Positions 37 to 34,216 of a stretch of DNA of 35,028 bases are shown piece by piece; the first letter of the stretch is position 1, and the number at the start of each line of letters is the position of its first letter. Source of the stretch: Bacteroidia bacterium. Lineage in GTDB: Bacteria; Bacteroidota; Bacteroidia; AKYH767-A; OLB10. The translations under genes were made by a program, and so were the position numbers. The DNA lies in NCBI GenBank assembly GCA_032111385.1, contig JAULUX010000114.1, forward strand, positions 1-35,028, read 5' to 3'. The notes beneath the pieces are model-generated. The model searched no databases and was not told the origin of the DNA. It saw only the letters and a list, made by a program, of their open reading frames with translations.

Positions 37-2028
37 TTACTGAATGACCATCATGCGGGTGAGTTTCTCACCATCAACAGTCACTGCGTAAGTATAGACC
101 CCGGCAGAAAGTCCTGCAGCATCCAGGTTCATCGTGGTGACGCCTGCAGCTACATTCTTCGTACTGGTGGTTGATACCAACTGGCCCATTGGGTTGAATA
201 CCTCGACAAGCACATCAGCGTTTTTCTTCAGATTGATCTCGAAGCGGCTGTAAGTGCTGAAAGGGTTCGGGTAGTTTTGAGCAATGCTGAAGTTGGCGCT
301 GGGAGAAGTCACTTCGTTGATGCTCGTGACAAAGTCAGTGACATCGGCACTGGCGTAAACGATATCGTTACGGTTTACGTTGTTGGAAGCCTGGCATTGC
401 AGAGCTGGATCTGTAGATGTGCTCAACAGGGAGTAGCCCGGTGCATCATCACGCTCGTAAAGTACGTGGATCTTGGAATCGACAACTTTGGCGAGTGAGG
501 GGTAAACCGCCTCCTGGAATTCGCCATCGCCGCCCTGAGCCAGCAAGGGAACAAGTGCCAGAGGAGTAGACCAGGTGTTTCCGCCGTCTGTTGACTTTAC
601 TGCATACACGTGACGACGGGATTGCTGGAAGATGTTGGTGTCAGCAATTTCACAAACAGAAGAGTAGGCCATGTAAACATTGCCGCTTGCGTCGTAACCG
701 ATGCTGGGGTGCGCGCTCAAGCCGCTTCCACCGTAGTAACCCAGTGTACGGCAAGTGGTGTTTGAAGCTACGATGCTGATAACAGTATCACCTGTAAGTT
801 CAGGAGCAGTGGCAGCAAGCAAGGGGCTGGTCATTCCTTCGTTCCAGTATACGATGCCGTCAACGGTGGGGAAATAACTCCAACCCGCTCCGGCAGTCGT
901 ATCGTCATCCAGGTAAACCATCTGCACCCAGGCCAGGTGAGCTGTACCGGTGGGGTCGACAGTTACCGTCACATCACCTGTGCTTGACTCCACCTGATCG
1001 GCTACACCGTCGTTGTCCACGTCAGAGATAGAGCCGCTGGCAGTGGGATCATACATAGAACCCAGGGGACCTGGCTGAACGATGGTCTTGGTCCAGGTTG
1101 TTCCATTGTCGGTTGACTTCATCAGGATAACGTCGCCGAAGCTCTCAGCAAGTGCAATGGCAATATTGTCTCCGTTGGCGTCGATGTGGTACACATCCGC
1201 TCCCCAACCGAAATACATGCTGGAGTCAAGGCCTGGAAGAACGATGTGCTGGATATCCCAGGTAGCACCGCCATCTTGTGAACGGGAGTAGGTGACAGGA
1301 CCGTTTTGTCCGAGGATCGGAGCGGTACCGCTTCCTTGGGAGTTGACAACCACGTGAAGCGATTGACCGTTAGCACCACCCACTGCCATACGTGACCAGA
1401 TGTCGGAACCGCCTGCAGGCATAGGACCACCGGCATTGTTCGAGTTGGTCCATGTTCCGGTACCTTTGGTGCGCTTGGAAAGGATCAGGCCGTTTGCACC
1501 ACCGCTATGCGCAACGGAGTACTCCATACCGTTGGCAACGCACATGTTCGGCCAGCCGGAGCGGGCACCGTCGACGCGGGTGGTGGGAGGAGTTCCCCAG
1601 CTCGATCCGTCGAAATAGTTGTAGAAGGTTCCGCGGTCAGCCCATGTGGACCCCATACCGGCTTGTGACCCCGTATAAACAACTGAAATGGTTCCGTCTC
1701 CGTTGTTGGAGATACGTTTGCCCATGCTCACGTTGCTTTGCAGGTCGTAATCCGAAGTTCCGATGATGGCTTCAGATACAGCACTGAAAGTCTTGGGTTG
1801 AACTTTCTTCAGGGCAGCGGCGGCTTGAACAGTCGGACCAGCCTGCACACGGAGGAGGCTCTGGTCGTCGATGTTGATTTCGCCTTTGTTGATTTTTACC
1901 GGTGGGAGTTGGATGTTCGTCGGACGAACCACTACTCCTTTTGCTGGCTTCACAGTGCGCAAAGCCTGGGCATTTGCTCCGAAGGCTGTGCCTAACGCAA
2001 TGCCGCAGATGAGTAATCTTTTGATCAT
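37..2028 (-). CDS. T9SS type-A CTD secreted protein with Asp-box (BNR) repeats, probable beta-propeller, function unknown
   Basis: 663 aa. Signal peptide ends at ANA-Q. Asp-boxes SQDGGATW, STDNGTTW, STDGGNTW and a DVDNDG Ca-binding-like loop. C-terminal 'QNYPNPF...VFNPMGQLV...LSAGVYTY...TRMMVIQ' is typical of a type-A CTD. Confidence 0.85.
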   Translation of the reverse strand: MIKRLLICGIALGTAFGANAQALRTVKPAKGVVVRPTNIQLPPVKINKGEINIDDQSLLRVQAGPTVQAAAALKKVQPKTFSAVSEAIIGTSDYDLQSNVSMGKRISNNGDGTISVVYTGSQAGMGSTWADRGTFYNYFDGSSWGTPPTTRVDGARSGWPNMCVANGMEYSVAHSGGANGLILSKRTKGTGTWTNSNNAGGPMPAGGSDIWSRMAVGGANGQSLHVVVNSQGSGTAPILGQNGPVTYSRSQDGGATWDIQHIVLPGLDSSMYFGWGADVYHIDANGDNIAIALAESFGDVILMKSTDNGTTWTKTIVQPGPLGSMYDPTASGSISDVDNDGVADQVESSTGDVTVTVDPTGTAHLAWVQMVYLDDDTTAGAGWSYFPTVDGIVYWNEGMTSPLLAATAPELTGDTVISIVASNTTCRTLGYYGGSGLSAHPSIGYDASGNVYMAYSSVCEIADTNIFQQSRRHVYAVKSTDGGNTWSTPLALVPLLAQGGDGEFQEAVYPSLAKVVDSKIHVLYERDDAPGYSLLSTSTDPALQCQASNNVNRNDIVYASADVTDFVTSINEVTSPSANFSIAQNYPNPFSTYSRFEINLKKNADVLVEVFNPMGQLVSTTSTKNVAAGVTTMNLDAAGLSAGVYTYAVTVDGEKLTRMMVIQ

Positions 2029-2122
2029 TTTGCTTTGGGTTTTAGTAAGTGATTATGTGATTGAATCGATTGATCTCTGGTTGATTTCTGAATGGTGGGA
2101 TAGATCCAATTGATGTTACTGA

Positions 2123-2130
2123 CAAATCTA
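2123..2130 (-). promoter_or_regulatory. Bacteroidota -7 promoter element (TAGATTTG) for the 37..2028 gene
   Basis: Exact TAnnTTTG match about 95 nt upstream of the ATG, after the upstream gene's terminator. Confidence 0.55.
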
Positions 2131-2229
2131 AGCGAATTTCTGTAATCGGAACGATGGTTTCCTAAAGTAGCATTGTTGTCCCTGGTATGCAGCCAAAATA
2201 ATAAAAACATCTTTTTTGGCGTAGGGTAT

Positions 2230-2264
2230 AAAAACAAATGGGCTCCTTCGGGAGCCCATTTGTT
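2230..2264 (-). terminator. Intrinsic terminator after the second T9SS gene
   Basis: Minus strand AACAAATGGGCTCC-CGAA-GGAGCCCATTTGTT followed by T's, about 25 nt after the stop at 2288. Confidence 0.85.
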
Positions 2265-2287
2265 GGAAATAACTAATTTAATTTCAA

Positions 2288-4267
2288 TTACTTCTGAACA
2301 CTGAGGACTTTGCTGGTCCACTCGTTGCCGATCATCACCTGGATGATATAAAGTCCGCTGGAAACCTCGCTCAGATCAAGCTGGAGGTTGTTGCTTCCTG
2401 CAGCACGGAATCCGAAGTTCTGGCTGGAAATCGTCTGGCCGAGGCTGTTAACAACATTCACCATCACGTTGGAACCTGATTTCAAATCGAGCATCAGATT
2501 GGACAGTGAAGCGGTCGGGTTCGGGTAGAGGACAATGGTGTTCAGGTTGTTTGGCAATTCGTTCAAGCTGGTGATGAACGGATTGGTAAAGTCATTTGAA
2601 GTGAACTCCAGTCCGCCTACAAATTCATGCATCCAGGGTTCAGTATCAGTTCCTGTGGCACCAATGGATCTGCTAGTCATACCGGGTACGACGAAGTTAC
2701 CGTTGGCAGCCCAACTGTCTCCTGCAACATACAACCAGTAGTTACTTCCGTCGTAGTTGCCTCCTGCAGTGAAATTAATTTCGTTGGTGTAGGTCTGAGT
2801 AGTGAAGTCAGCAGCTACGCCAATGATATTTGGATAGGCATTGGTTGCAGCAATAAGCGTGTCGGTGTCCATCCAGAAATAACCCATCTTGGTAGCGTCA
2901 GCAGAGCGGGTGATTTGAAGGCGGGCATCAGTACCAACAGCCCAGTTGAGGTTGGTTCCGTCTTCCGGATCGGTAAGGACGGTTCCTACCCAAAGTGCAT
3001 TCCAGTTTCCACTGTTGTCTTCGTACACATCGAATACAGTTCCGTAGCTGTTCAAGAAGTTAAGGGAGTCGGCATCGTTACTGTATGCAGCAGAAACTTC
3101 GCACAGGATGTGGATTTTTCCGTTTGCATCAACTTGGGCATCGAGGCTGTTTTGCAAATTCCAAAAAGGACGGTCTACAGCTGGATTTGCAGCAGAAGAT
3201 GCAGGGAAGAATCCCTGAAACAGCGGGCTGAAATCTCCGGTGTAATACAATGACCATGTGGCACCGGCGTCAGTAGTGCGGTAAACAATCGGCATAGGAG
3301 CCTGGTGGTCGTTGATGGAGTCACGTCCAATCAGTACCAGGTAACCGGTAACACCGTCCTGTGAGAAGGCGATGGTTCCCAAAGAGGAGAAGTTCTGACT
3401 TCCGTCTGCTGGATCCTGGCTGAAAGCATGGTATATCAGCGTTTGCGTCCAGGTGTAGTTGTTGTTGGCGGCATCCCAAACGCCTTTGTTGATCACCGCT
3501 CCGTCAAAATAAGGGTTGGTGGTGTTGTTGAAGTCGTAATTAGAACCGAGAACGTAGACGTTTCCGTTGGTTCCGGTGCACATGCCCAAACGCGGCATGT
3601 ATTGAGGAGTTACGGGAGCAGAAGCGTTGTAGATGTTCAGCTGTGAGGCGTTCTGGTTGTCCAGACGAAGCGAGGCAAATGTTCCGCCGTCCCAGGTTGC
3701 TCCGCCAACAATGATCGGAGCAGAAGCCACTGCATATCCCTGATTGGGAGTGGTATTTCCCGGAGGATTAGCCACAACACCGTTCGGGTAACGGTTAGGG
3801 TCGGTAGCGTTCTGGGTGATGGCCAAGGTCGTATCCCAGGTAAGACCTTTGTCGTAACTGACATGGGTTTGAATCACACCACTGTTGTTGACAGGGAAGG
3901 TGTTTCCGATAGCTTTCCTGTTGGTGTAGGAAATCACATCGAGTGTCGGATTGTATGCACCAAGTGTACCCTCTGCTACCAGAGATCCGTAAATATTGGC
4001 AGACGTGGCAATATCCACTTTGGTTGCAGTGGCAATTTGGTTTCCGCTACCTGGAGTGGATTTACGGACAGGGGCAGGCTTTGCCGTCTTGTTGGTAAAA
4101 GTTTGGACTTTGGGTTCAGTCGGTGCAACGAATTTTTTCGCCTTCACCAGTTTCCCGGGAGCCATTACCCGGTTTTGAGCCGAGGCAGGAAGGATCGCCA
4201 GGCAGCAGGCAGCCAGCAGGATGCTTCCTGCACGTCCCAAATTGATCAGGGGTACGTTTTTTTTCAT
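2288..4267 (-). CDS. T9SS type-A CTD secreted protein with Asp-box repeats, function unknown
   Basis: Start moved to ATG 4267 (MKKNVP..., signal peptide ending ASA-Q), 659 aa. Asp-boxes SYDKGLTW and TTDAGATW. CTD 'LYPNPT...VVNSLGQ...SSGLYII...SKVLSVQK'. Confidence 0.85.
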   Translation of the reverse strand: MKKNVPLINLGRAGSILLAACCLAILPASAQNRVMAPGKLVKAKKFVAPTEPKVQTFTNKTAKPAPVRKSTPGSGNQIATATKVDIATSANIYGSLVAEGTLGAYNPTLDVISYTNRKAIGNTFPVNNSGVIQTHVSYDKGLTWDTTLAITQNATDPNRYPNGVVANPPGNTTPNQGYAVASAPIIVGGATWDGGTFASLRLDNQNASQLNIYNASAPVTPQYMPRLGMCTGTNGNVYVLGSNYDFNNTTNPYFDGAVINKGVWDAANNNYTWTQTLIYHAFSQDPADGSQNFSSLGTIAFSQDGVTGYLVLIGRDSINDHQAPMPIVYRTTDAGATWSLYYTGDFSPLFQGFFPASSAANPAVDRPFWNLQNSLDAQVDANGKIHILCEVSAAYSNDADSLNFLNSYGTVFDVYEDNSGNWNALWVGTVLTDPEDGTNLNWAVGTDARLQITRSADATKMGYFWMDTDTLIAATNAYPNIIGVAADFTTQTYTNEINFTAGGNYDGSNYWLYVAGDSWAANGNFVVPGMTSRSIGATGTDTEPWMHEFVGGLEFTSNDFTNPFITSLNELPNNLNTIVLYPNPTASLSNLMLDLKSGSNVMVNVVNSLGQTISSQNFGFRAAGSNNLQLDLSEVSSGLYIIQVMIGNEWTSKVLSVQK

Positions 4268-4338
4268 GCGTGTTTTTTGTTTTAGGTTAATTTTTATGAA
4301 TTTGATGGAATTGATTTCAGTTGTGAATCGAATAGCAA

Positions 4339-4346
4339 CAAACATA
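4339..4346 (-). promoter_or_regulatory. -7 promoter element (TATGTTTG)
   Basis: Exact TAnnTTTG match about 70 nt upstream of ATG 4267, which supports the shorter start. Confidence 0.55.
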
Positions 4347-4448
4347 CTGTTTTTACAGAAAAAAGTGATGCTCGATTGACTGGATCTTATGAACAATTCG
4401 ACGCTTTCGACTGCGTGGATTCTGAAGTTCTTTTGAGAAAGAAGCGTT

Positions 4449-9845: not shown

Positions 9846-10712
9846 TCAGTCGCCCAGAAACGCCTTGAGCACGAGATTGAAATTCCTGCCGCGCAAACGT
9901 CGAAGTGCTTTCTCCTTGATTTGCCTGACCCGTTCCCGGGTGAGATTGAATTTCATGCCGATTTCCTCAAGGGTATAGGGTTGATTGTCTCCGATGCCGA
10001 AGAAGAGAATCAGCACTTCACGCTCTCTTTCTGAAAGGCCGTGCAAGGAGCGCTCTACTTCCTGCTTCAACGATTCATTGATGAGGTTCATGTCGGTGCG
10101 CGGGGTGTCCGTGCTCTCCATCACATCAAGTAGAGTGGAGTCCTCGCCGTGAGCGAATGGAGCGTCTACGGATACATGTTTCAAGGAGACTTTCAAGGCA
10201 TCACTCACCTTGTCGATGGGCATATCGGTGACCGCTGCTACCTCATCGGCAGTCGGTTCCCGTTCGAATTCCTGCTCCAGCTTGCTGAAGGCCTTGGTGA
10301 TCCTGCTAAGCGATCCGATCTGGTTCATCGGTAATCGGACAATACGGGCTTGTTCTGCGATGGATTGTAAAATACTCTGACGGATCCACCACACAGCATA
10401 GGAGATGAATTTGAATCCGCGGGTTTCGTCGAAACGCTTAGCCGCCTTGATCAGCCCCAGGTTTCCTTCGTTGATCAGGTCGGGAAGGCTCAACCCCTGG
10501 TTCTGGTATTGCTTGGCCACGGAAACCACAAACCTCAGGTTCGACTTAGTAAGTTTGTCGAGAGCCTTTTGGTCTCCGGCCTTGATCAGCCTGGCCAGTC
10601 GTGCTTCCTCATCTGCGGTGATCATGGGTTCCTTGGAAATATCGGCAAGGTATTTCTCCAGGGATGCACTTTCCCGATTGGTGATGGAACGGGTGATTTT
10701 GAGCTGGCGCAT
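9846..10712 (-). CDS. RNA polymerase sigma-70 factor, Bacteroidota primary (RpoD/SigA) type, paralog 1
   Basis: 288 aa. MRQLKIT start, region 2 [12 protein letters not shown]...[19 protein letters not shown], region 4 TLEEIG...[13 protein letters not shown]. Confidence 0.93.
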
Positions 10713-10880: not shown

Positions 10881-12326
10881 CTACATGCCAAAACCATAGA
10901 ATGCCTTCATGCCGTTCGGGTAGATGCCTTCGATAAGGACGCCGCCTTGTTTACTGTCCAGGTAGGAAATGACCTCTGTAGAATTTTTTACAGGTTTATT
11001 GTCGATGGCCGTGATGATAAAGCCGTCTTTCAGTCCGGCATTTTTCAATTTACCGGGACGCAATTCCTTCACCTTTACACCCGAATTGAGCCTCAATTTG
11101 TCCAATTCGACATCTGATGCGTTTTCGAGTGTAGCGCCCAGCAAACTGGCCGTTTCGTTTCGTTTTACAGCGGTCGTCCCTTCCTTGTTCCTCAAGGTCA
11201 CGTTGAACAGTTTTTCATCGCCTTTCCGGATGACGGATACCTGAATACGGTCTCCAGGGCGATGCCTTCCCACCTGCTCCTGTAACTCCGGAGACGATTT
11301 AACAGGTGCGCCATTGATCGCGGTGATGACATCTCCCTCACGTATGCCGGCACTTTCCGCAGCTCCATCTTCGGTGAGGCCGTTCACGTAAACCCCCTGA
11401 AGTGTACGCAGGTCCTTCTCCTTTGCAAATTCGGCATCCACATCCCGAATACTCACGCCGATGAAGCCCCGTTGTACTGTGCCGAACTCGATCAGGTCGT
11501 CAACCACCTTGCGAACCATGTTCACGGGAATGGCGAAAGAATAACCGGAATAGGAACCGGTGTTCGATGCGATGGCAGTATTGATGCCGATCAATTCGCC
11601 CCTGGAATTCACCAAAGCCCCTCCCGAATTGCCCGGGTTGACCGCTGCGTCGGTTTGTATGAATGATTCGATTGGGAACCGCTGGTTGGGCAGTATGTTT
11701 ATGTTTCTGGCTTTTGCGCTGACGATTCCGGCGGTCACGGTCGATGTCAGATTGAATGGGTTTCCAACTGCTAAAACCCATTCGCCGACACGTACCTCGT
11801 CTGAATTCCCCCAATCGATATGGGGAAGCTTTTCTGCTTCCACTTTCAGTAAAGCCAGATCCGTAGAGGGGTCGATACCCACGACGCGTGCTTTGTATGT
11901 CTGCTTGTCGTCGAGGGTCACCGTGACTTCGTCGGCGTTTTCTATGACGTGGTTATTGGTCACGATGTATCCATCTTCCGAAAGAATCACACCGCTGCCG
12001 GCTGATTGTTGTTGCGGAGCGGACTGGGGCGACGGCTGTCCCCAAAAGAAAGAAAAGGGGTCAAAGAATGGATTGGCCATTCCCGACGTGCGGGAAATTG
12101 TTGTTTTTACGTGAACAACGGTAGTGACTGCCCGCTCAGCGGGAGCGGTGAAATCGACCGGAGGAGCGGATGGCCCCGCGTACAGTACTTGTTTGACCGG
12201 ATTTTTGTGGTCATATCCATCCAGATTGGAGAAGCTGGGGGATGAGGGGAGCGCCCATTGGTATAGGGAAGCTCCTGCAAAACCGCCGAGAATGGTCAGC
12301 GAAACGAAAAGGATGTGTTTGCGCAT
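10881..12326 (-). CDS. degP: Do/HtrA-family serine endoprotease with two PDZ domains
   Basis: TNNHV (His), DLAL (Asp), IQTDAAVNPGNSGG (Ser), an N-terminal membrane anchor and two PDZ-like domains. Confidence 0.93.
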   Translation of the reverse strand: MRKHILFVSLTILGGFAGASLYQWALPSSPSFSNLDGYDHKNPVKQVLYAGPSAPPVDFTAPAERAVTTVVHVKTTISRTSGMANPFFDPFSFFWGQPSPQSAPQQQSAGSGVILSEDGYIVTNNHVIENADEVTVTLDDKQTYKARVVGIDPSTDLALLKVEAEKLPHIDWGNSDEVRVGEWVLAVGNPFNLTSTVTAGIVSAKARNINILPNQRFPIESFIQTDAAVNPGNSGGALVNSRGELIGINTAIASNTGSYSGYSFAIPVNMVRKVVDDLIEFGTVQRGFIGVSIRDVDAEFAKEKDLRTLQGVYVNGLTEDGAAESAGIREGDVITAINGAPVKSSPELQEQVGRHRPGDRIQVSVIRKGDEKLFNVTLRNKEGTTAVKRNETASLLGATLENASDVELDKLRLNSGVKVKELRPGKLKNAGLKDGFIITAIDNKPVKNSTEVISYLDSKQGGVLIEGIYPNGMKAFYGFGM

Positions 12327-12381
12327 GGCTTTTGTTTTTTTTGTTGGTGAATATCAGTCAACATATATACGTCAGACCTGT

Positions 12382-12389
12382 CAAAATTA
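12382..12389 (-). promoter_or_regulatory. Possible -7 element (TAATTTTG) of degP
   Basis: TAnnTTTG match 55 nt upstream of the ATG. Confidence 0.45.
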
Positions 12390-12500
12390 TTTTCGAGGAA
12401 ATGAAAGCCGTGTGAATTTAACTCGATTTAACAAGTTGAAGTGCTTTTGATTGCATCCCGGAAATGGCTTTAGTCGAGGAGGATAAACAACCATATTTGC

Positions 12501-12508
12501 TACTTTTA
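12501..12508 (+). promoter_or_regulatory. Near-consensus -7 element (TACTTTTA) 4 nt before the dapF GTG
   Basis: TACTTTTA-CGGG-GTG, the same spacing as at copA. Confidence 0.5.
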
Positions 12509-12512
12509 CGGG

Positions 12513-13295
12513 GTGCGGATTCCATTCGTAAAATACCAGGGCGCCGGAAATGACTTCGTGATTTTCGACGCTTGGAAAGAAGCTGTCGAACTTTCCGGGG
12601 CTACGATAGCCATGTTGTGCGATCGCCACTTTGGCATCGGTGCAGATGGGTTGATGCTCATCAGGAAGATGAACGGTTTTGATTTCGAAATGGTGTATTA
12701 CAACTCGGACGGAAAAACCGGAAGCATGTGCGGTAACGGTGGACGTTGTCTGGTCGACTTTGCCGTGGTTTCCGGGTTGGTGAAAGGTCCCAACATTCGT
12801 TTCCTGGCCAGTGACGGACCCCACGAAGCGGTGGTGTTGGGGCCCGGATCGATCCGCTTGCGGATGATTGATGTGGATGAAATCGCCCTAGTAGATGATG
12901 GGTATCTGATCAACACCGGATCGCCTCATTTTATTCACTGTGTCGACGAACTTCATGGCTTCGACGTTACCGCCGAAGGCCGGAAGACCAGATTCAGCGA
13001 ACGATTCAAAGACGACGGGGTCAATGTGAATTTCATGGAATGGAAAGATGGTCTTTTGCATGTGCGTACTTACGAGCGCGGTGTTGAAGCGGAGACTTTG
13101 AGTTGTGGAACCGGTGTCACCGCTGCCGCTTTGCTGGCACACCGTCTCGGGGTCACTGGCGGGCGGACGACATGTGGTGTTTCCACACAAGGCGGATTGC
13201 TCAATGTCAGTTTTGATTCGGTAGGTGATGGTTTTCGAAACGTCTGGCTGGAAGGTCCGGCTACATTTGTTTTCAAAGGAGAAATTGAATTATGA
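12513..13295 (+). CDS. dapF: Diaminopimelate epimerase
   Basis: KYQGAGNDF, DRHFGIGADG, MCGNGGRC, TGSPH and RTYERGVEAETLSCGTG. Confidence 0.96.
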   Translation: MRIPFVKYQGAGNDFVIFDAWKEAVELSGATIAMLCDRHFGIGADGLMLIRKMNGFDFEMVYYNSDGKTGSMCGNGGRCLVDFAVVSGLVKGPNIRFLASDGPHEAVVLGPGSIRLRMIDVDEIALVDDGYLINTGSPHFIHCVDELHGFDVTAEGRKTRFSERFKDDGVNVNFMEWKDGLLHVRTYERGVEAETLSCGTGVTAAALLAHRLGVTGGRTTCGVSTQGGLLNVSFDSVGDGFRNVWLEGPATFVFKGEIEL

Positions 13296-13837
13296 TTCGT
13301 GGTAACAGTATCATTTTGCGCGCATTGGAACCGCAGGACGTGGATCTGATGATGATTTTCGAGAACGACCAGGAGATATGGCAAGTCAGCGGCACGCTCT
13401 CTCCATACGCAAGGTATACGCTTGAGCAGTATTATGCGAACGCAACCCAGGATATTTATGCCACCAGGCAAATGAGGTTGGCCATTGAAACCATTACAGA
13501 GGTTCCCGGAGCCGGGTTGACCATTGGGTATGTTGATGTGTTCGATTTCGATCCTCAGAACCGACGGGCGGGAGTGGGCATCCTCATCGGGGAACCGTCG
13601 CAGCGCCGAAAGGGATATGCCTCCGAGGCATTGAAGCTTATGATCAGGCACTGCTTCACCGTGCTGAATCTTCATCAGTTGTATTGTCATATTAACAATA
13701 TGAACGAACCCAGCCTTAAGCTCTTTTCCAAGGTCGGTTTTAAACCGTGCGGTGTTTTGCGCGATTGGATTGTTTATGATGGAGAATGGCATAACGTCAC
13801 CTTTTTTCAATTGATCAGGCCACAGCCAATCCTTTGA
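13292..13837 (+). CDS. GNAT N-acetyltransferase, RimJ/RimL/SpeG-like
   Basis: LRALE start, RRKGYASEAL acetyl-CoA motif and N-x-x-S-x-x-L-F-x-K-x-GF. ATGA overlap with dapF. Confidence 0.85.
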   Translation: MIRGNSIILRALEPQDVDLMMIFENDQEIWQVSGTLSPYARYTLEQYYANATQDIYATRQMRLAIETITEVPGAGLTIGYVDVFDFDPQNRRAGVGILIGEPSQRRKGYASEALKLMIRHCFTVLNLHQLYCHINNMNEPSLKLFSKVGFKPCGVLRDWIVYDGEWHNVTFFQLIRPQPIL

Positions 13838-15897
13838 TAGAAAAGCGCATGGTGCACCGCTTTGGAATCGTCTTGCTGGTAGCCATATCCGCCTTTCTGA
13901 ACTGGGTCTGCGGTACCAGGACAGCTTTAGATCCGGAGCAGATCGCACGTTCCCGAACGAGTTATGCCGGTTTGTCCGACACGGCACGCTATGTCGGAAT
14001 GAATACCTGCATGGGTTGTCATTCCGGAATCCACGAGACTTTCCGGCATACCGGAATGGGCATGTCCTTCGACCGCGCAACCACTGTAAAAAGCGCCGCG
14101 GAATTCAATGCGGGTTCGACAGTATATGACAAACAAAAGGATCTGTTCTATCATCCTTTCTGGAAAGACGATTCCCTCTTTTTTTCCGAATTCCGGTTGA
14201 ATGGAAAGGATACCATTCATCAGCGCAGGGAGCACGTTGCCTATGTTGTAGGGTCGGGACAGCATACAAACTCGCACATCCTTGACAGGAATGGATATCT
14301 GTTCCAGGCGCCACTAACTTATTATACCCAGAAAGGCAAGTGGGATCTTCCACCGGGATTTGAGCAAGGCAATAACTCAAGGTTCAACCGTTCCATCGGT
14401 TTGGAGTGCATGAGTTGCCACAATGCCTATCCGGAGTTTGTCGTCGGATCGTCGAACAAGTACAATCTGGTTCCTTCAGGAATTGATTGCGAACGCTGTC
14501 ACGGACCCGGAAGCATCCACGTTCGGGAGAAATCGATGGGGATCTTGATCGATACGGCGAAGGCGATCGATTATTCAATTGTGAATCCCGCTAAATTACC
14601 CATCGACTTGCAGTTCGATGTTTGTCAACGTTGTCATGTCCAGGGGAATGCAGTCCTAAGGGAGGGAAAGTCCTTTCTTGATTTCAAGCCGGGTATGCGT
14701 CTGTCCGAAGTGATGAATATCTACATGCCTGTATATGATGACGACGGAGAGCAGCACATCATGGCTTCGCATGCAGAACGTCTCAAAATGAGCAAGTGTT
14801 TTATCGAGAGCGCGCCTTCCTCAAGATCCGAATCGGAAGCCTTGCGGCCCTATAAGAATGCTCTAACCTGTATTACCTGCCATAACCCTCACGTCTCCGT
14901 GAAAAAAAGCGGCCGGAATCTTTTTAACGCGGCATGTATGGATTGCCATGGCAAAAAAGTAAAAAGTCTTTGTACGGAGAAGAGTGTATTGCGTACGAAA
15001 TCGAGTGATGATTGCGTTTCGTGTCATATGCCACTTCATGGAACCGTTGATATTCCGCACGTCAGTGTGCACGATCATAGGATCGGCATTCACCGGATGG
15101 ATGCCGGTGATGAGTCGGGTGCCATTCGCAAGCTGAAAGGGATCATTTGTGTGCATGATTCCGATCCCCCACGGGAATCGACCGGAGAAGCCTATGTCAA
15201 TTACGTTGAAAAATTCGGTTTTTCAATTTCACTTCTTGATTCTGCCCTGAAATACATCCCTCACCATACCAAGGATGAAAAGCGGAAACAATTCCATTCA
15301 CTCGTTCGGATTGCTTTTTTAAAGAGGGATGTCCAGTCGTTAAATCAGCTGTTGAGTGAACTTCCTGATATTCGGAAAGGTCTGAATAGAATGGATCCTG
15401 AAAACAGGGATGCCTGGACTTCCTACCGTATCGGGGAATTGTTACTGGTCGATGGAACGACCAATCCGGGCAAAGGCGACGCGCGAGATCCCCTGCCCTG
15501 GTTTGAAAACGCCTATAAACTAGCTCCGCTTGATCCCGCTTTTGCCAACAAGTACGCTACTTTATTAGTCAATGCCGGTCGACCGAATGAAGCCGGGAAA
15601 ATTTGGGAGTTCATGGTCAAGGAACATCCGAATTATGCACCCGGTTTTTGCAATCTCGGCTACCTCGTCTTGCAAAGGGACCGGAATACAGTACGAGCGC
15701 ATCAATTGATCGATCGGTCCATCGCTCTTGATCCTGACTACGAGCAATCGTATATGAACAAAGCTGCTGTTTGTATTCAGGAAGGCGATTTGATTGAAGC
15801 GGAGCGGTTGTTGAATGTGGTGATGGTAAAGAATCCCCGACAAGAACAAGCCCGTCGTGCACTGGCAGCTATCCGGTCTGAAAGGAAATTGAGATGA
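13834..15897 (+). CDS. Multiheme cytochrome c (7 CxxCH) with C-terminal TPR-like repeats, exported and possibly a lipoprotein
   Basis: CxxCH codons start at 14008, 14407, 14488, 14623, 14869, 14935 and 15013. Hydrophobic N-terminus followed by Cys (FLNWVC). TPR-like helices (AYKLAPLD, HPNYAPGFCNLG, SIALDPDY). Start is TTG 13834 (TTGA overlap) or ATG 13849. Confidence 0.85.
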   Translation: MIEKRMVHRFGIVLLVAISAFLNWVCGTRTALDPEQIARSRTSYAGLSDTARYVGMNTCMGCHSGIHETFRHTGMGMSFDRATTVKSAAEFNAGSTVYDKQKDLFYHPFWKDDSLFFSEFRLNGKDTIHQRREHVAYVVGSGQHTNSHILDRNGYLFQAPLTYYTQKGKWDLPPGFEQGNNSRFNRSIGLECMSCHNAYPEFVVGSSNKYNLVPSGIDCERCHGPGSIHVREKSMGILIDTAKAIDYSIVNPAKLPIDLQFDVCQRCHVQGNAVLREGKSFLDFKPGMRLSEVMNIYMPVYDDDGEQHIMASHAERLKMSKCFIESAPSSRSESEALRPYKNALTCITCHNPHVSVKKSGRNLFNAACMDCHGKKVKSLCTEKSVLRTKSSDDCVSCHMPLHGTVDIPHVSVHDHRIGIHRMDAGDESGAIRKLKGIICVHDSDPPRESTGEAYVNYVEKFGFSISLLDSALKYIPHHTKDEKRKQFHSLVRIAFLKRDVQSLNQLLSELPDIRKGLNRMDPENRDAWTSYRIGELLLVDGTTNPGKGDARDPLPWFENAYKLAPLDPAFANKYATLLVNAGRPNEAGKIWEFMVKEHPNYAPGFCNLGYLVLQRDRNTVRAHQLIDRSIALDPDYEQSYMNKAAVCIQEGDLIEAERLLNVVMVKNPRQEQARRALAAIRSERKLR

Positions 15898-16961
15898 GTA
15901 AGACGAAAAATAGAAAATCTGGTTCGGGTGTCGCAAAAAAGACAATCTTGGGGTTGGCTGCGCTTTTCGCAGTGTCCATGCTTTTTTACGGCATCGTGCT
16001 TTACAAAAGACTGTTCACCCCCAATACTGCACCTCTTCAAGACAAGTCCTATGTATTGATTCCTACCGGTTCCGGTTTTCCTGAGGTTGTCCAAATACTT
16101 GAGGATGGGGGATACATCAAGGATGTAAAGAGTTTTGAATGGACAGCGAAGCAGATGAACTATCCTGAACGGATCATGCCGGGACGCTACAAGATCAAAT
16201 CGGGTATGGGGAACCGGGAGCTGGTATCCTTGCTCCGATCCGGAAAACAAGACCCGGTCAGGGTTGTTGTGCGTAACCACAGGACGATTTTCGAATTGGC
16301 GGGATCGGTAAGTAAGAAAATTGAAGCTGACTCAGCCTCAATCGCGTTCCTGCTCAGGGACCGGTATTATCTTGAACAGAACGGCATACGCCCGGATGCA
16401 GTTCTGGGCATGTTCATCCCCAACACCTACGAATATTTTTGGAACACCTCTGCTGAACAATTTTTCAAACGGATGTTGGGTGAGTCGAAGAAGTTCTGGA
16501 CCGAGACCAGGCGGGCAAAAGCAAAGGCGTTAGGGTTGACGGAAATGCAGGCCGTTATCATCGCCTCGATAGTGGAGAAGGAGACCAACAGGAACGATGA
16601 GAAGGCCAGGATTGCAGGTGTTTATCTGAACCGTTTCAGGAAAGGATGGAAGCTGGAAGCCGATCCAACATTGGTTTATGCAACCGGTGATTTCAGTATC
16701 CGTAGGGTGCTCGACATCCACAAGGAGATCGACTCTCCATACAATACGTATTTGTACACCGGGTTGCCACCCGGACCGATTTGCATCCCGTCCATTTCGT
16801 CGATAGATGCAGTATTGAACGCTGAGAAACATGATTTCATGTTCTTTTGCGCCCGCGCTGATTTTTCCGGATACCATTCTTTCGCAAAGACCTATCAGCA
16901 ACACCTTGTGAATGCCAGGCTTTTTCAGAAGGAGTTGAATAAACGCGGGATACGGTCTTAG
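15894..16961 (+). CDS. mltG: Endolytic peptidoglycan transglycosylase MltG (YceG family)
   Basis: N-terminal TM, ASIVEKET catalytic Glu, LEADPT and SPYNTY...GLPPGPI. ATGA overlap with the upstream gene. Confidence 0.95.
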   Translation: MSKTKNRKSGSGVAKKTILGLAALFAVSMLFYGIVLYKRLFTPNTAPLQDKSYVLIPTGSGFPEVVQILEDGGYIKDVKSFEWTAKQMNYPERIMPGRYKIKSGMGNRELVSLLRSGKQDPVRVVVRNHRTIFELAGSVSKKIEADSASIAFLLRDRYYLEQNGIRPDAVLGMFIPNTYEYFWNTSAEQFFKRMLGESKKFWTETRRAKAKALGLTEMQAVIIASIVEKETNRNDEKARIAGVYLNRFRKGWKLEADPTLVYATGDFSIRRVLDIHKEIDSPYNTYLYTGLPPGPICIPSISSIDAVLNAEKHDFMFFCARADFSGYHSFAKTYQQHLVNARLFQKELNKRGIRS

Positions 16962-17005
16962 GAGCTGCTCGCTTCTTTCAAGTGTGTTTTTCACTGCTGA
17001 ATCGG

Positions 17006-17013
17006 TACCTTTG
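17006..17013 (+). promoter_or_regulatory. -7 element (TACCTTTG) 6 nt before ATG 17020
   Basis: TACCTTTG-TCTCCT-ATG. Confidence 0.6.
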
Positions 17014-17019
17014 TCTCCT

Positions 17020-18222
17020 ATGACGATTGGTATCATTCGGGAAGAGAAAATGCCTCGCGACAAGCGCGTGCCGTTTACTCCGTTGCAATGCAAAGAACTA
17101 GTGGAGCTGTACCCCGGGTTGAATATCCTGGTTCAGCCATCCCCACACAGATGCTATTCCGATGCAGAGTATGCGTCGCTTGGAATCTCATTGCAGGAAG
17201 ACCTAAGTCAATGCGATGTGCTGATGGGCATAAAAGAAGTTCCGAAGGAGAAACTCATTCCGGGAAAAAAGTACTTGTTCTTTTCCCATACGATCAAAAA
17301 GCAGCCTCACAATCGTGATCTGCTCAAAACAGTCCTGCAAAAAGGTGTTCAACTCATCGATTACGAATGTCTGGTGGATGAAAAGAATAACCGTGTCATC
17401 GGATTTGGCAGGTATGCAGGTCTGGTAGGTGCCTACAACGGCATCATGGCCTATGGACTCAAGTATGGTTTGTTTGAGCTGAAGCCGGCGCAGTTATGTC
17501 ACGATAAAAAGGAGTTGTTCGCCGGCTTGGATCAGATCAGCTTGCCCAACATCAAAATCATCGTTACCGGTGGCGGACGTGTAGCGAATGGCGCTTTGGA
17601 AGTGCTGGGTGTTCTTGGTCTGAGAAAAGTAACTGCCTATGAATTCCTGAACTATTCTTTCAGGGAGCCTGTCTATGCTCAATTGCATTCTGAGGATTAT
17701 CACCGTTCCAAGGACGGATCGCCCTTCAGCAACAGCCTGTTTCACGAACATCCCGAGTTGTTCGATTGTACTTTCGCTCATGGGCATTCATTCGCCTCCA
17801 ATTGCGATCTGTTGATTCACTGTACTTTTTGGAATCCTGCAGCTCCGGTCCTTTTCACCAAAGACCAGATGCGCGATCCCCGTTTTCGGATTTCGGTTAT
17901 AGCCGATGTGACCTGCGATATCGACGGCAGTATTCCTTCGACTACCAAGCCATCAACGATCGAGGATAAGTTTTACGGCTACAATCCGAATACCGAGAAA
18001 ATCGACGAGCCTTTCGCGCCATCCACCATTACGGTAATGGCTATAGACAATCTCCCATGTGAACTTCCCAGGGATGCATCTGAAGGGTTCGGGAAGCACC
18101 TGATCGAACGGGTCATGCCGTCGTTGTTGGGTGAGGACAACGGTCTGATTGAACGTGCTAGTATCGCGAGGGAAGGTAAACTTACTTCGCGGTTCGGATA
18201 CTTGTCCGACTACGTCGCCTGA
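17020..18222 (+). CDS. AlaDh/PNT-fold NAD(P)-dependent oxidoreductase, lysine-ketoglutarate reductase/saccharopine dehydrogenase-like
   Basis: 400 aa from MTIGIIRE. GIKEVP, FFSHTIKKQPHN, LIDYE, IGFGRYAG, ADVTCDIDGSI and MAIDNLPCELPRDAS match LKR-type domains. Confidence 0.8.
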   Translation: MTIGIIREEKMPRDKRVPFTPLQCKELVELYPGLNILVQPSPHRCYSDAEYASLGISLQEDLSQCDVLMGIKEVPKEKLIPGKKYLFFSHTIKKQPHNRDLLKTVLQKGVQLIDYECLVDEKNNRVIGFGRYAGLVGAYNGIMAYGLKYGLFELKPAQLCHDKKELFAGLDQISLPNIKIIVTGGGRVANGALEVLGVLGLRKVTAYEFLNYSFREPVYAQLHSEDYHRSKDGSPFSNSLFHEHPELFDCTFAHGHSFASNCDLLIHCTFWNPAAPVLFTKDQMRDPRFRISVIADVTCDIDGSIPSTTKPSTIEDKFYGYNPNTEKIDEPFAPSTITVMAIDNLPCELPRDASEGFGKHLIERVMPSLLGEDNGLIERASIAREGKLTSRFGYLSDYVA

Positions 18223-18241
18223 TTTACGGATGGAATAGGGC

Positions 18242-18907
18242 TTACGCAGTCTGTGACACGCAATCCTTCAGCATAGAAATGACTTCTGTAGGGTTGGTGG
18301 ATGAAAAAACCGTGTTTCCGGCCACCAAGACATCAGCACCGGCCTCCACCAGTTCACGGGCATTCTTTAAGTCCACACCTCCGTCGATTTCAATTTTAGC
18401 GGATGAGTTTTTTTGAAGAATCAGATTCTTCAAGTCATCGACTTTGCTCAGTGTATTCTTGATGAAACGCTGCCCGCCGAATCCGGGATTGACAGACATG
18501 ACCACAACCAGGTCAATCGAGGCGATCACCTCTGAGAGGAGCGATACCGGCGTATGTGGGTTGATGGCTACTCCCGCCAGTACACCCAGCTGTCGCATCG
18601 ATTGGATGGTCCGGTGGAGATGCGTGCAGGCTTCCAAATGAACGGAAATGATAGAGGCTCCGGCGTCGGCGAAGGCTGCCAGGTACTTGTCCGGTTCAAC
18701 AATCATCAAGTGCACATCCAATGGCTTCTTGGCGTGCTTTCTCAAAGCGCTCATGACGGGAAATCCAAAGGAAATATTCGGAACGAATACGCCATCCATT
18801 ACGTCGACATGGAACCAGTCGGCACGACTTTCATTGATCATCTTGATGTCTTGCTGCAGATTGCCGAAATCTGCGGAAAGGACGGATGGGGCGATAAGTA
18901 CGGGCAT
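18242..18907 (-). CDS. rpe: Ribulose-phosphate 3-epimerase
   Basis: IAPSVLSADF, HVDVMDGVFVPN, DVHLM, MSVNPGFGGQ and EIDGG. Start moved to ATG 18907, with a near-consensus -7 TAACTTTA at 18925-18932. Confidence 0.96.
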   Translation of the reverse strand: MPVLIAPSVLSADFGNLQQDIKMINESRADWFHVDVMDGVFVPNISFGFPVMSALRKHAKKPLDVHLMIVEPDKYLAAFADAGASIISVHLEACTHLHRTIQSMRQLGVLAGVAINPHTPVSLLSEVIASIDLVVVMSVNPGFGGQRFIKNTLSKVDDLKNLILQKNSSAKIEIDGGVDLKNARELVEAGADVLVAGNTVFSSTNPTEVISMLKDCVSQTA

Positions 18908-18972: not shown

Positions 18973-19908
18973 CTAAAAGTGTACACCCATTCCGAACATG
19001 AAAAAGAGGCTATTCAGGCCGTTCGTTCGCTCCGGCATGACCAACTGATCTCCGTCGAAAAAGCTTGTGTAGATTTTGGATGGAATCGCCTCCCGATAAA
19101 GAGTTCTTCTGTAGGTGACTTGGGGTAAAATCAAAGAAAAATAAGCTGAAGCATGCCATTCAAAACGAACGCCCGCCTCCATCGAGTACAGGTCGGCAAA
19201 CACGGTTCGTGAAAATTCCTCTTTTTTATATTCGAGGGCACCGGTTGAGCTGTTTTGCATCAAGTCGGTCTGCATGGTCACCTCTTCCTTTTCCCTTAGG
19301 TGAGTGTACATCAATTAGCCAACTATATGGATGGAATAACCCAGGAAATGAGCCGGATTGTATTCTTGAAGAGTTAGTGCTCCAATGACATAGACCGACT
19401 TTAAATCGTGCGACATGATGATTGACTCACCGATATATTCGTTTTTGAGAATTCCTTGTTGGATCTTGTCGACATCGAGAAAACCGGATTGACTGAATTG
19501 AAATCGTTCATAACCGAGTCCGATCGACAGGGGTGATCCTGCGGTTTTAAGCTTCGAAAAGTCAATTGACATTTCGAAGGAAGGCTTGTCTGAAAGTACA
19601 CCGTAAGTCTCTCGGTCGCTTTCTGTGTCGCTACCGAAAATGCTAAAGCCTAAGTCCATCTCAGGTTCTTTGATCAGCTCATTCAGCATAAAGATCTGCT
19701 TGTTCCATCTGGTTGCAATGGTGTAATAGTGGACAGTTGTACTTTCTTTTATCGGCTTGTACACCACAATTGAGTCCGGGTCTCCCGTAAAGCTGATGTG
19801 TTCGGTCTTGGAAGCAGACTGTCCTCCCTTCGAAGTGGAAGAAAGCACGACCATCATCAAGGATAAGAAGATGCTGATTGAATGGAAGGTGTTTTTGTTA
19901 GTAGTCAT
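18973..19908 (-). pseudogene. Orphan exported, probably outer-membrane beta-barrel protein interrupted by an in-frame TAA at 19315-19317
   Basis: ORFs 19315..19908 and 18973..19314 share a frame and together align end to end with the neighbouring paralog. Signal-like N-terminus and C-terminal GMGVHF. Confidence 0.65.
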
Positions 19909-19974: not shown

Positions 19975-20884
19975 TTAAAGATGAAGTCCGATTCCCACCA
20001 TTAAGAAAATCCCATGGTAACTGCTCTTACGCTCTTCGATTTCGATTTTGTCACCATCAATTCCACTTGTGTAAGTAGTGGCAGGAACAGCATTGCTGAT
20101 GAATGTTCCTCTAAGTGTTACCTGTGGAAGTATTATGGATATGAATCGGCTTGCATGCAACTCCAAGCGCCCCCCCGGCTTCAATGGCAAGTTTGTCGGC
20201 AGGCATTGATCTTTGAAAGGTCTCGGATTGATATTCCATTTGACCTGTAGTTCCATTGATATGGTAGTTGCTTTGCATGGTTACCCGTTCGGTTTCCTGA
20301 ATATCAAAATACCGAATGGCACTGAACACACTGATTGAATAACCGAAAATACGTTTTGGCACAAAGGGTTTCACATTCAATAAACCCATCAGCGAAAAGG
20401 AATGCAAGTCGATGGTGTGAACCAGGTATTCACCATAATAGGTTTCACTGAACCAGCCTGACAAGGTTTGATCGACATCAATAAATCCACCATATTGATA
20501 TTGAAGTTTTTCAATTCCAATACCCAAAGTGACCGGATTTCCTTTGATGTTTAGATTGGGAAAAGTTATGGCAGCTTCGTAGTACAATCCTGATTCCCAA
20601 TTTAGAATGGCCGTTTCTTCAATGCCGTCAAAGATGCTAGGGGGATCTGTTGTTTTTATAGATTCAAATTTTTTCCCTGTCCAGAACTCATACCCGGCTG
20701 TGAAATGGAACCTGCTTTTTCGATCCGGAGTAGGTGCGGTGTTGATTAGGGAGTCCGTTTTTTTTACTTTAAATGCGGAGTGATTCAACATCGCCTGGTC
20801 CCGTGATCTGCCATAAATTGGAGTAATCAGTGCAGCGCAGGTGAAAAGCAGTGTAATTATCACCTGCATCAGCATTTTTTTCAT
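19975..20884 (-). pseudogene. Paralogous orphan beta-barrel-like protein, frameshifted at a G7 tract (C7 at 20170-20176 on +)
   Basis: Removing one G joins ...IEAGG to RLELHASRFISIILPQVT...GIGLHL (302 aa). This matches the paralog's EAGVRFEWHASAYFSLILPQVT...GMGVHF. Confidence 0.65.
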
Positions 20885-21007: not shown

Positions 21008-21871
21008 CTAACCCAGATAGGTCTTCAGGATCTTGCTGCGCGATGTGTGCTTCAATCTGCGTATCGCTTTCTCTTTGATCTGACGTACGCGTTCGCGGGT
21101 GAGTTCGAAACGTTCACCGATTTCCTCAAGAGTCATGGGCGAGTCGTTCAGGCCGAAATACAGGCGGATGACGTCGGCTTCACGCGGTGTGAGCGTGAAC
21201 AGAGCCCTTTCGATCTCTCTGCGAAGCGATTCGGTAATGAGGTTGTTCTCCGGGGAGGGTGTTGAATCTTCACCGGGCATTAGGTCCATCATTGTGGAGT
21301 CCTCTCCCTGGATCAGCGGGGCGTCCATGGATACATGTCGTCCTGATGAACGCATCGTATCGAGTACATCATCAACGGATATATTCAGAACTTCCGACAA
21401 TTCTTCGTTGGTGGGTTCACGTTCGAACTCCTGTTCGAGCTGAGCGAAGGCCCGGTTTATCTTGTTGATGAAACCGATCTTGTTCAAAGGCAAGCGGACG
21501 ATGCGTGCTTGTTCTGCCAAAGATTGAAGGATGCTTTGTCTGATCCACCATACGGCATAGGAGATGAATTTGAATCCCCGCGTTTCATCGAATCGTTGAG
21601 CCGCCTTGATCAAACCCACATTCCCTTCATTGATCAGATCACCAAGGGTCAATCCCTGATTCTGGTATTGCTTGGCCACGGAAACGACAAAGCGCAGATT
21701 TGCCTTGGTGAGACGCTCAAGAGCCTGTCTGTCGCCTTCCTTTATACGGCGAGCCAGTTCCACCTCTTCCTCGGGCTTGATCAAGTCCACTTTCCCGATT
21801 TCCTGAAGGTATTTGTCGAGTGATGCGGTTTCGCGATTGGTGACCTGCTTGGTAATTTTTAATTGTCTCAT
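21008..21871 (-). CDS. rpoD: RNA polymerase sigma-70 factor, Bacteroidota primary (RpoD/SigA) type, paralog 2
   Basis: Start at [26 protein letters not shown] (ATG 21871), 287 aa. Conserved regions 2 and 4, in the rpsO-pnp-sigma-(rpe) context. Confidence 0.92.
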
Positions 21872-22052
21872 GTTTGCTATAAAGAATACAAGTCCCCTTA
21901 ACGGCATGTATTGGAAGCAGGTTGCAGCATGACATGTTGTATGCCTTTTCCGGATGTAAGATTCAGGTGATTCTGGTCGACAATTGGGCAGAAACGATTG
22001 AAACCGTTAGTTTTTGAATCAAATTAAACACTGCGTCTTGAGGATTGTACAT

Positions 22053-34129: not shown

Positions 34130-34216
34130 TACATGCAAAAATCGTAAAAAACGGCCTTGGGATGAAATTATAGTGGCAGTAGTTTGCGGAATGAACTGAT
34201 CGAAATGCGAAGGACT

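Follow-up and report, generated by a model that had tools for sequence, protein, structure and literature searches.

The 35,028-nucleotide (nt) stretch analysed here, referred to below as the window (contig JAULUX010000114.1 of the Bacteroidia genome assembly GCA_032111385.1), encodes a 687-amino-acid (aa) protein (13834-15897, + strand) that joins seven CxxCH motifs to a C-terminal tetratricopeptide-repeat (TPR) domain. Its gene is the third of four arranged head to tail on the + strand, preceded by dapF and a GNAT gene and followed by mltG. The protein is a predicted heptahaem c-type cytochrome and candidate lipoprotein whose haem domain, as modelled, shares the fold of the OcwA/OmhA/MccA/c554 branch of the NrfA superfamily, including the beta-sheet domain. 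It belongs to a family that is very large, uncharacterised and found across Bacteroidota. The explanation we favour, with about even confidence, is that it is a general periplasmic, lipid-anchored seven-haem redox protein, possibly catalytic at haem 2, whose gene is lodged in an older dapF-GNAT-mltG array. That the cytochrome is not specific to peptidoglycan we hold with good confidence.

A count of seven CxxCH motifs is far above chance: shuffling the protein 20000 times never gave more than two, and 6 shuffles reached that number. The motifs begin at residues 59, 192, 219, 264, 346, 368 and 394, and the 687-aa cytochrome contains neither a CxxCK nor a CX15CH motif. The full-length AlphaFold2 model (predicted local distance difference test score, pLDDT, 93.7; predicted template modelling score, pTM, 0.91) shows a helix at residues 2-26, a beta-rich part at approximately aa 79-171, a haem core extending to approximately aa 440 and, across residues 447-686, helical repeats. 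The N-terminal signal or anchor helix (13834-13911, +) ends at Cys26, a candidate lipidated residue that 112 of 129 aligned relatives share, with 13 more rows gapped or truncated at that position. The residues preceding it, N-W-V, are unlike a classical lipobox. Because a cysteine after the signal helix is conserved in so many relatives, the cytochrome is probably a lipoprotein, and it is probably exported and periplasm-facing, in agreement with the original prediction of an exported, possibly lipid-anchored, undescribed redox protein. With several CxxCH motifs, an export helix and maturation genes elsewhere in the genome, it is a predicted multihaem c-type cytochrome with covalently bound haem.

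The C-terminal domain (aa 447-687; 15172-15894, +) is all-helical and is a TPR domain by both its Pfam scores and its helical-repeat fold. Two TPR models exceed their cut-offs (TPR_19, PF14559, 36.1 against 25; TPR_17, PF13431, 33.2 against 24.4), and TPR structures match the full-length model at Z 12-15.5. The predicted combination of seven CxxCH motifs and C-terminal TPRs in one 687-aa protein therefore stands, with motifs located and TPR models over cut-off.

Since fold searches with the whole model were swamped by TPR matches, the haem domain (aa 27-446; 13912-15171, +) was folded and searched alone. A model of aa 40-446, built from a 111-row alignment (pLDDT 91.1), was compared with 48161 representative PDB chains using VIA-align. 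The top match is OcwA (6i5b; Z 16.9, 315 residues aligned, root-mean-square deviation 3.7, 18% identity), followed by OmhA (6qvm, Z 11.2) and MccA (4rkm, Z 9.2) with 270 residues aligned each. The next, unrelated row has Z 6.2 and covers the beta sub-domain only; c554, HAO and octahaem nitrite reductase score approximately 5, NrfA/c554 4-5 and MtrA 3.5. Foldseek also retrieves OcwA (E 1.8e-7). A family profile searched against PDB sequences matches OcwA at 6.7e-16, NrfA (3ubr) at 1.2e-8, MccA at 1.6e-7 and c554 at 3e-4. In the HMMER alignments the seven CxxCH motifs pair in order with OcwA haems 1-7, leaving OcwA haems 8 and 9 unmatched.

The family was first sized with a word-indexed search, in which 6029 homologues were found among 8000 candidates scored. 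The best 120 are all 605-698 aa long, and the only names given to those that have one are 'tetratricopeptide repeat protein', 'cytochrome c3 family', 'CXXCH cytochrome family', PilF and 'hypothetical'; the named NCBI entries among them come from Bacteroidia or from metagenome-assembled genomes of Bacteroidota. When the query haem domain (aa 1-455) was searched exhaustively against a library with a single representative of each 50%-identity cluster, 5061 matches reached E<=1e-3, and 1351 of them reached E<=1e-30. Exactly seven CxxCH motifs are present in 220 of the 225 full-length relatives fetched, and six in the other five. A search of the ESM Atlas returned only generic cytochrome c-552/c554 cluster names. 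In the literature searched, we found no description of heptahaem-TPR cytochromes of Bacteroidota or of a link between a multihaem protein and MltG. Within the order to which the window belongs, the cytochrome gene is nearly universal and single-copy: it was found in 40 of 41 genomes, the single absence being a genome of 58% completeness, and it occurs once in the window's own genome (2.57 Mb in 295 contigs, approximately 91% complete). In two genomes of the same genus (G007:C7:317892-319906 and G018:C1:742003-743927) the gene is present as two adjacent open reading frames (ORFs) with a break near residues 333/335, which is where the model has its only low-confidence loop, between haems 4 and 5.

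Residue conservation was read from a 129-row alignment reaching down to 25% identity. Outside the CxxCH motifs, H229, H353, H409, H415 and C322 are conserved in all 129 rows. At position 75, 118 rows have Met and the other 11 have Lys; H313 occurs in 113 rows and Cys380 in 109. The invariant unpaired Cys322 (codon 14797-14799, +) lies in the conserved motif H313-A-E-R316-L-x-x-S320-x-C322, in which R316 is present in 126 rows and S320 in 127. R183 and R186 (the latter in 128 rows), which directly precede the haem-2 motif in sequence, are conserved as strongly as R316 and S320. Cys322 aligns near the distal His-His region of OcwA haem 2, in a segment where the HMMER alignment is uncertain.

As originally stated, no quinol-oxidase, porin or haem-maturation gene lies nearby: none of these families was detected among the 28 ORFs of the window that were scanned. 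Other contigs of the same genome carry genes relevant to haem maturation and electron transfer. CcsA-type maturation genes are found on contig C186. On contig C8 (1911-5547, L200) a six-CxxCH QrcA/ActA-like cytochrome gene adjoins one for a QrcB/ActB-like molybdopterin-type subunit with a twin-arginine translocation signal, a pair that makes up an alternative-complex-III-like module, truncated where the contig ends. Contig C10 (3385-5325, L201) encodes a 647-aa protein with five CxxCH motifs and a C-terminal sorting domain of the type IX secretion system (T9SS), followed by a 977-aa T9SS cargo protein; the 647-aa protein is a candidate cell-surface multihaem cytochrome.

These elements suggest the following mechanism. 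Anchored by Cys26 and facing the periplasm, the cytochrome would receive respiratory-chain electrons into a mostly bis-His haem chain with one His/Met haem; the genome encodes the alternative-complex-III-like module described above. The candidate distal ligands are H229, H313, H353, H409, H415 and Met75. Because these are six conserved candidates for seven haems, we infer that haem 2 is left either with no distal ligand or with Cys322. Electrons would then reach haem 2, where a small periplasmic substrate may be reduced or oxidised. The presumed distal pocket of this haem would hold the invariant Cys322 and may also include R316 and S320. In c554, MccA and OcwA, catalysis takes place at haem 2 (PMC6703420; Soares et al., bioRxiv 10.1101/2022.02.24.481543). 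The TPR domain may act as a platform for docking or for oligomerisation and self-association, in place of the OcwA oligomerisation helices. Catalysis at haem 2 is put forward tentatively, with somewhat less than even confidence. On this account the cytochrome gene would sit within dapF-GNAT-mltG because it was lodged in the older array in one Bacteroidia lineage.

The genomic context of the gene was surveyed at several scales. In the window's order, 29 loci had flanks of 1.5 kb; 27 of them have the GNAT gene and 22 have dapF upstream, and 21 have mltG downstream. Of 401 genomes sampled evenly across the phylum, 42 have a haem-domain match. Full-length forms are present in four other genomes of the same class and in approximately 21 genomes from other classes, where 2-3 paralogues are common, and shorter forms without the TPR domain (approximately 400-480 aa, approximately 30% identity) are present in three further families. 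Outside the window's order only one of 29 loci (G403) has dapF, GNAT and mltG around the cytochrome gene, and 18 distant homologues are flanked by unrelated housekeeping genes. The reverse search with the GNAT protein identified orthologues in 43 of the 401 genomes. Besides the window's own, 29 GNAT loci were available: G403 carries the cytochrome and the other 28 are all contiguous dapF-GNAT-mltG arrays without it. The cytochrome family, which occurs in other classes, predates the array and is more widespread, and the array in turn is found without the cytochrome.

TPR-less relatives in two same-class genomes (L059:1345-2673 and L061:1378-2661; 428-443 aa, approximately 30% identity) drew our attention for another reason. 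In two of four loci such genes lie in an order resembling a polysaccharide-utilisation locus (SusD, Laminin_G_3 protein, cytochrome, FG-GAP repeat protein). A multihaem cytochrome within a locus of this type is unexpected.

A further scan with one genome per species, in which the best 80 of 576 relatives were kept, recovered mostly uncultured freshwater-type Bacteroidia together with Chitinophagaceae such as Flavipsychrobacter stenotrophus. Among those of the 80 loci with enough flank, GNAT is upstream in 25/69, dapF in 14/62, and mltG is downstream in 33/69. A FastTree tree of 119 cytochromes (115 distinct rows, with 4 duplicates from the same genome being reached twice) places these arrangements in groups. 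In the other classes neither mltG downstream nor GNAT upstream was seen (0/15 each); in the Chitinophagales/Saprospiraceae-like group mltG follows in 1/23 and GNAT precedes in 0/23; in the remaining clade of 77 Bacteroidia rows mltG follows in 53/73 and GNAT precedes in 49/71. The adjacency of cytochrome and mltG is thus not kept wherever the family occurs, being common in one clade against next to nothing in the other two groups. Counted over all tree rows, both neighbours are present at 38 loci, mltG only at 12, GNAT only at 9 and neither at 44. On the tree the mltG state must have changed no fewer than 13 times and the GNAT state no fewer than 8 times, and where cytochrome and array are combined the link decays about equally toward either neighbour. 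The originally suggested check of neighbourhood conservation thus shows a link to mltG in one Bacteroidia clade, while homologues elsewhere stand in unrelated contexts.

These patterns bear on the proposal that had been put foremost, in which the protein senses redox state or acts as a redox enzyme in a module that influences peptidoglycan processing, its TPRs docking onto MltG or a different wall enzyme and thereby coupling wall turnover to redox or oxygen state. In the clade with dapF-GNAT-cytochrome-mltG, the haem redox state, or chemistry at haem 2 and Cys322, would tune glycan-strand termination to the respiratory or oxygen status of the cell. The position of mltG directly downstream on the same strand in 53/73 clade loci, including 12 loci lacking an upstream GNAT, speaks for such a module, as do the ATGA stop/start overlap with mltG in the window and the predicted membrane anchoring and periplasmic orientation of both proteins. 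Against this, the array is intact at all 28 cytochrome-less loci, and five genomes of the unlinked groups have mltG with no dapF, GNAT or cytochrome gene within 1.5 kb. Nine loci keep the GNAT-cytochrome pair and have lost mltG, genomes of other classes hold 2-3 paralogues, and the repeated changes of mltG state on the tree point the same way. A predicted complex of mature cytochrome-TPR (27-687) with periplasmic MltG (41-355) scored 0.00 twice, a result obtained without controls that counts neither way.

NlpI and LpoA are TPR lipoproteins that scaffold wall enzymes, and they share with the cytochrome the combination of a periplasmic lipoprotein anchor with TPRs, next to a wall-enzyme gene in the present case. 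They carry no haem, unlike the cytochrome, and matches to either family were absent in the Pfam and NCBIfam scans. Taken together, the absence of the cytochrome from otherwise intact arrays and of mltG beside the cytochrome in other groups argue against a dedicated role in peptidoglycan processing, which we regard as improbable. Two outcomes originally named as refuting such a role are largely borne out: many homologues stand in unrelated contexts, and the haem domain has the fold of the characterised respiratory cytochrome OcwA, although it falls outside that family.

The same data can be read in the opposite direction, with the cytochrome ancestral to the four-gene array and lost where dapF-GNAT-mltG stands alone, so that the array would be an old functional unit. 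Cytochrome-mltG without GNAT is already the arrangement in the groups that branch first within the 77-row clade, and the family, through its occurrence in other classes, is older than the array; both observations would suit such a history. The direction of change is unreadable because the tree is unrooted, was made with FastTree and has 34 open forks. The array occurs in 28/28 genomes of the group labelled f8, none of the 28 cytochrome-less loci (mostly f8) holds a cytochrome within it, and Chitinophagales-like genomes have neither array nor link. We consider an ancestral four-gene unit unlikely. The synteny pattern fits lodging of the cytochrome gene in a conserved envelope-biogenesis array, followed by inheritance, and fits a dedicated cytochrome-MltG pair less well. 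Insertion into a convenient operon, which had been offered as a fallback, is consistent with these results.

Several points weigh against a lodged, possibly catalytic redox protein. The ligand assignment and the placement of Cys322 at haem 2 depend on HMMER alignments to OcwA that are uncertain in this segment, and haem attachment, localisation and lipidation are all predicted. No recurring redox-partner or substrate-related gene was seen beside the 18 distant homologues. In addition, the cytochrome-containing array is kept in more than 50 species at 40-57% protein identity. Such retention exceeds the usual neutral persistence in Bacteroidia and makes a functional tie to the neighbours conceivable; it is the reason why a small probability is kept for a real tie of this kind. 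Finally, the catalytic His-His pairs of OcwA appear not to be conserved, so the protein could be a pure electron carrier.

In that case it would relay electrons from a quinol-oxidising complex to periplasmic or surface acceptors without a catalytic site, with the TPR domain holding a partner. Besides the apparent loss of both His-His motifs, it fits this alternative that the conserved His and Met residues suffice for six haems and that Cys322 could ligate the seventh. The family profile also matches the MtrA chain of 6r2q (3e-13), and the window's genome encodes both the alternative-complex-III-like module and, in the five-CxxCH T9SS protein, a possible surface acceptor. On the other side, haem 2 is catalytic in this branch of the superfamily, the Cys322 segment with R316 and S320, together with R183/R186 beside the haem-2 motif, shows the conservation expected of an active site, and among the neighbours of the 18 distant homologues no partner gene travels with the family. 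Electron transfer as the sole function is held to be less likely than not. We retain the reading of a general redox protein lodged in the array.

The genes of the array are well defined. The first, dapF (12513-13295, +), encodes diaminopimelate epimerase (TIGR00652, E 3.9e-60, 203.6 bits against a cut-off of 114.65; PF01678). The second (13292-13837, +) encodes a GNAT N-acetyltransferase (PF13302, 80.1 bits against 25.4), the middle gene of dapF-GNAT-mltG that is constant in the class; no signal peptide is apparent in it by eye, and its top NCBIfam match is SpeG-like and far under the cut-off. The fourth, mltG (15894-16961, +), encodes a YceG-family endolytic transglycosylase (PF02618, 273.7 bits; TIGR00247, 183.6 against 103.4) with an N-terminal membrane helix by eye. 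The genes had been described as joined by three 4-nt overlaps. The order and the ATGA overlaps at 13292 (dapF/GNAT) and 15894 (cytochrome/mltG) are confirmed; the TTGA overlap at 13834 is valid only if translation starts at the TTG. An in-frame ATG at 13849, five codons downstream, would give a protein of 682 aa and a gap of 11 nt after the GNAT stop, and a near-identical public protein (P0001) of 682 aa is consistent with that start.

The cytochrome gene is probably co-transcribed with the array. Low-depth contigs from RNA libraries, in which DNA carry-over is possible, cover parts of dapF (12691-13165), GNAT (13295-13604) and the cytochrome gene (13933-14134) in run X19, and of the cytochrome gene (15510-15697) and mltG (15906-16083) in run X20. 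None of these contigs spans a gene junction of the array; runs X22 gave nothing and X23 only a 33-base piece of a foreign contig. Scans of 12000-18500 for sigma-70 promoters and terminators returned 12 and 10 sites against 7.1 expected each, which is uninformative, Bacteroidota promoters being outside the models of the scan. An AlaDh_PNT-type dehydrogenase gene (16984-18222, +; PF05222, 72.3 bits) begins 22 nt past mltG. It is retained after mltG in several loci of the same genus at 69-73% identity (94% in L004), and is possibly a fifth gene of the transcription unit in that genus only. It would then share the unit with the lysine-pathway gene dapF, and a role like that of a lysine or saccharopine dehydrogenase is conceivable.

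The rest of the window contains several features of separate interest. Two genes for RpoD-type sigma factors with regions 1.2, 2, 3 and 4 (9846-10712 and 21008-21907, both on the - strand) lie within 11 kb. A two-ORF module is tandemly duplicated (18973-19908 and 19975-20884, both -), with the small ORFs 43% identical over 70 aa and the larger ORFs, which have no Pfam match, 34% identical over 85 aa. Three large ORFs with T9SS C-terminal sorting domains (Por_Secre_tail or CHU_C) occupy 37-4396 (-) and 32660-34138 (-). What remains is ordinary Bacteroidota housekeeping, including a MurJ-like flippase, P-type ATPase, HtrA, Rpe, PNPase, LepB, DapB and ParAB.

The fold and chemistry of the cytochrome are those of an established superfamily. 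New are the architecture of seven haems, TPRs and probable lipid anchor, the size of the family, its near-universality in the order, and an invariant cysteine located, within an uncertain alignment, where relatives have their catalytic pocket. Because nearly every genome of this freshwater Bacteroidia order carries the gene, in a single copy, what it does matters for understanding the core physiology of an abundant group. That it has stayed so long among cell-wall genes raises the question of whether redox state feeds into wall turnover; if it did, this would be an undescribed link between the electron-transport chain and peptidoglycan processing. The 1351 clusters at 50% identity that match at E<=1e-30 constitute a very large sister family of OcwA in aerobic, mostly uncultured Bacteroidota. 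In contrast, OcwA/OmhA-type cytochromes are reported by Soares et al. (bioRxiv 10.1101/2022.02.24.481543) to be very poorly represented in databases.

Compared with characterised cytochromes, the family lies outside those of OcwA, NrfA, MccA and MtrA, whose defining features it lacks. The DmsE/MtrA and GSU2203 decahaem families of NCBIfam give partial matches over aa 191-405 far below their cut-offs (48.2 against 192.2 and 62.1 against 325), and no porin partner is present among the scanned ORFs of the window. NrfA, a pentahaem nitrite reductase, and cytochrome c554 are distant profile matches that belong to a superfamily with alternating haem packing, and the catalytic-haem CxxCK of NrfA is missing from the 687-aa protein. 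OmhA (an undecahaem S-layer cytochrome, 6QVM) and MccA (an octahaem sulfite reductase, 4RKM) are in the same branch of the NrfA superfamily as the haem domain. According to Soares et al. (bioRxiv 10.1101/2022.02.24.481543), OcwA, OmhA, MccA and c554 form one clade in which haem 2 of the N-terminal module is catalytic. MccA has eight haems including a CX15CH site; the cytochrome of the window has seven CxxCH motifs, no CX15CH and a different C-terminal module. The same text reports that MccA C399 and C495 bind Cu(I) at haem 2 (Soares et al.). A comparable haem-copper site formed by Cys322 and Cys380 was considered and set aside as at most remotely possible: the HMMER alignment to 4rkm leaves both residues unpaired with the MccA cysteines and gives no support to it.

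The best structural match is OcwA, the nonahaem outer cell-wall cytochrome of Thermincola potens (PDB 6I5B), so that the fold, at Z 16.9, does match a characterised respiratory cytochrome, while the protein is not an OcwA-family member. OcwA can reduce iron oxides, nitrite and hydroxylamine (PMC6703420). Sequence similarity to it is weak (E 2.5e-7 with the single sequence), and it is a Gram-positive surface protein, whereas the cytochrome of the window is a predicted diderm lipoprotein. The likeness includes the beta-sheet domain, which OcwA has in common with MccA (PMC6703420). The family residues His229, His313 and His409 align to His residues of OcwA, Met75 stands in place of an OcwA His, and the family's Cys322 is invariant. 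In OcwA, haems 2 and 5 are described as five-coordinate, each below a His-His pair, and haem 9 as His/Met-ligated (PMC6703420); the catalytic residues over five-coordinate haems of the OcwA/OmhA type are given as H282 and H381, with neighbouring H281 and H380 (Soares et al., bioRxiv 10.1101/2022.02.24.481543). These pairs appear not to be kept in the family, where, in an uncertain segment aligned by HMMER only, D406-I407 is opposite one pair and K318-M319 near the other, the two alignments differing by a few residues. OcwA has nine haems and OmhA eleven, against seven here, and both end in a three-helix bundle (for OcwA, PMC6703420) where the family has its TPR domain. The haem domain is thus best viewed, from the models, as a shortened OcwA-type core consisting of haems 1-7 and the beta-sheet domain, in which a TPR domain of approximately 240 residues would replace haems 8-9 and the helix bundle.

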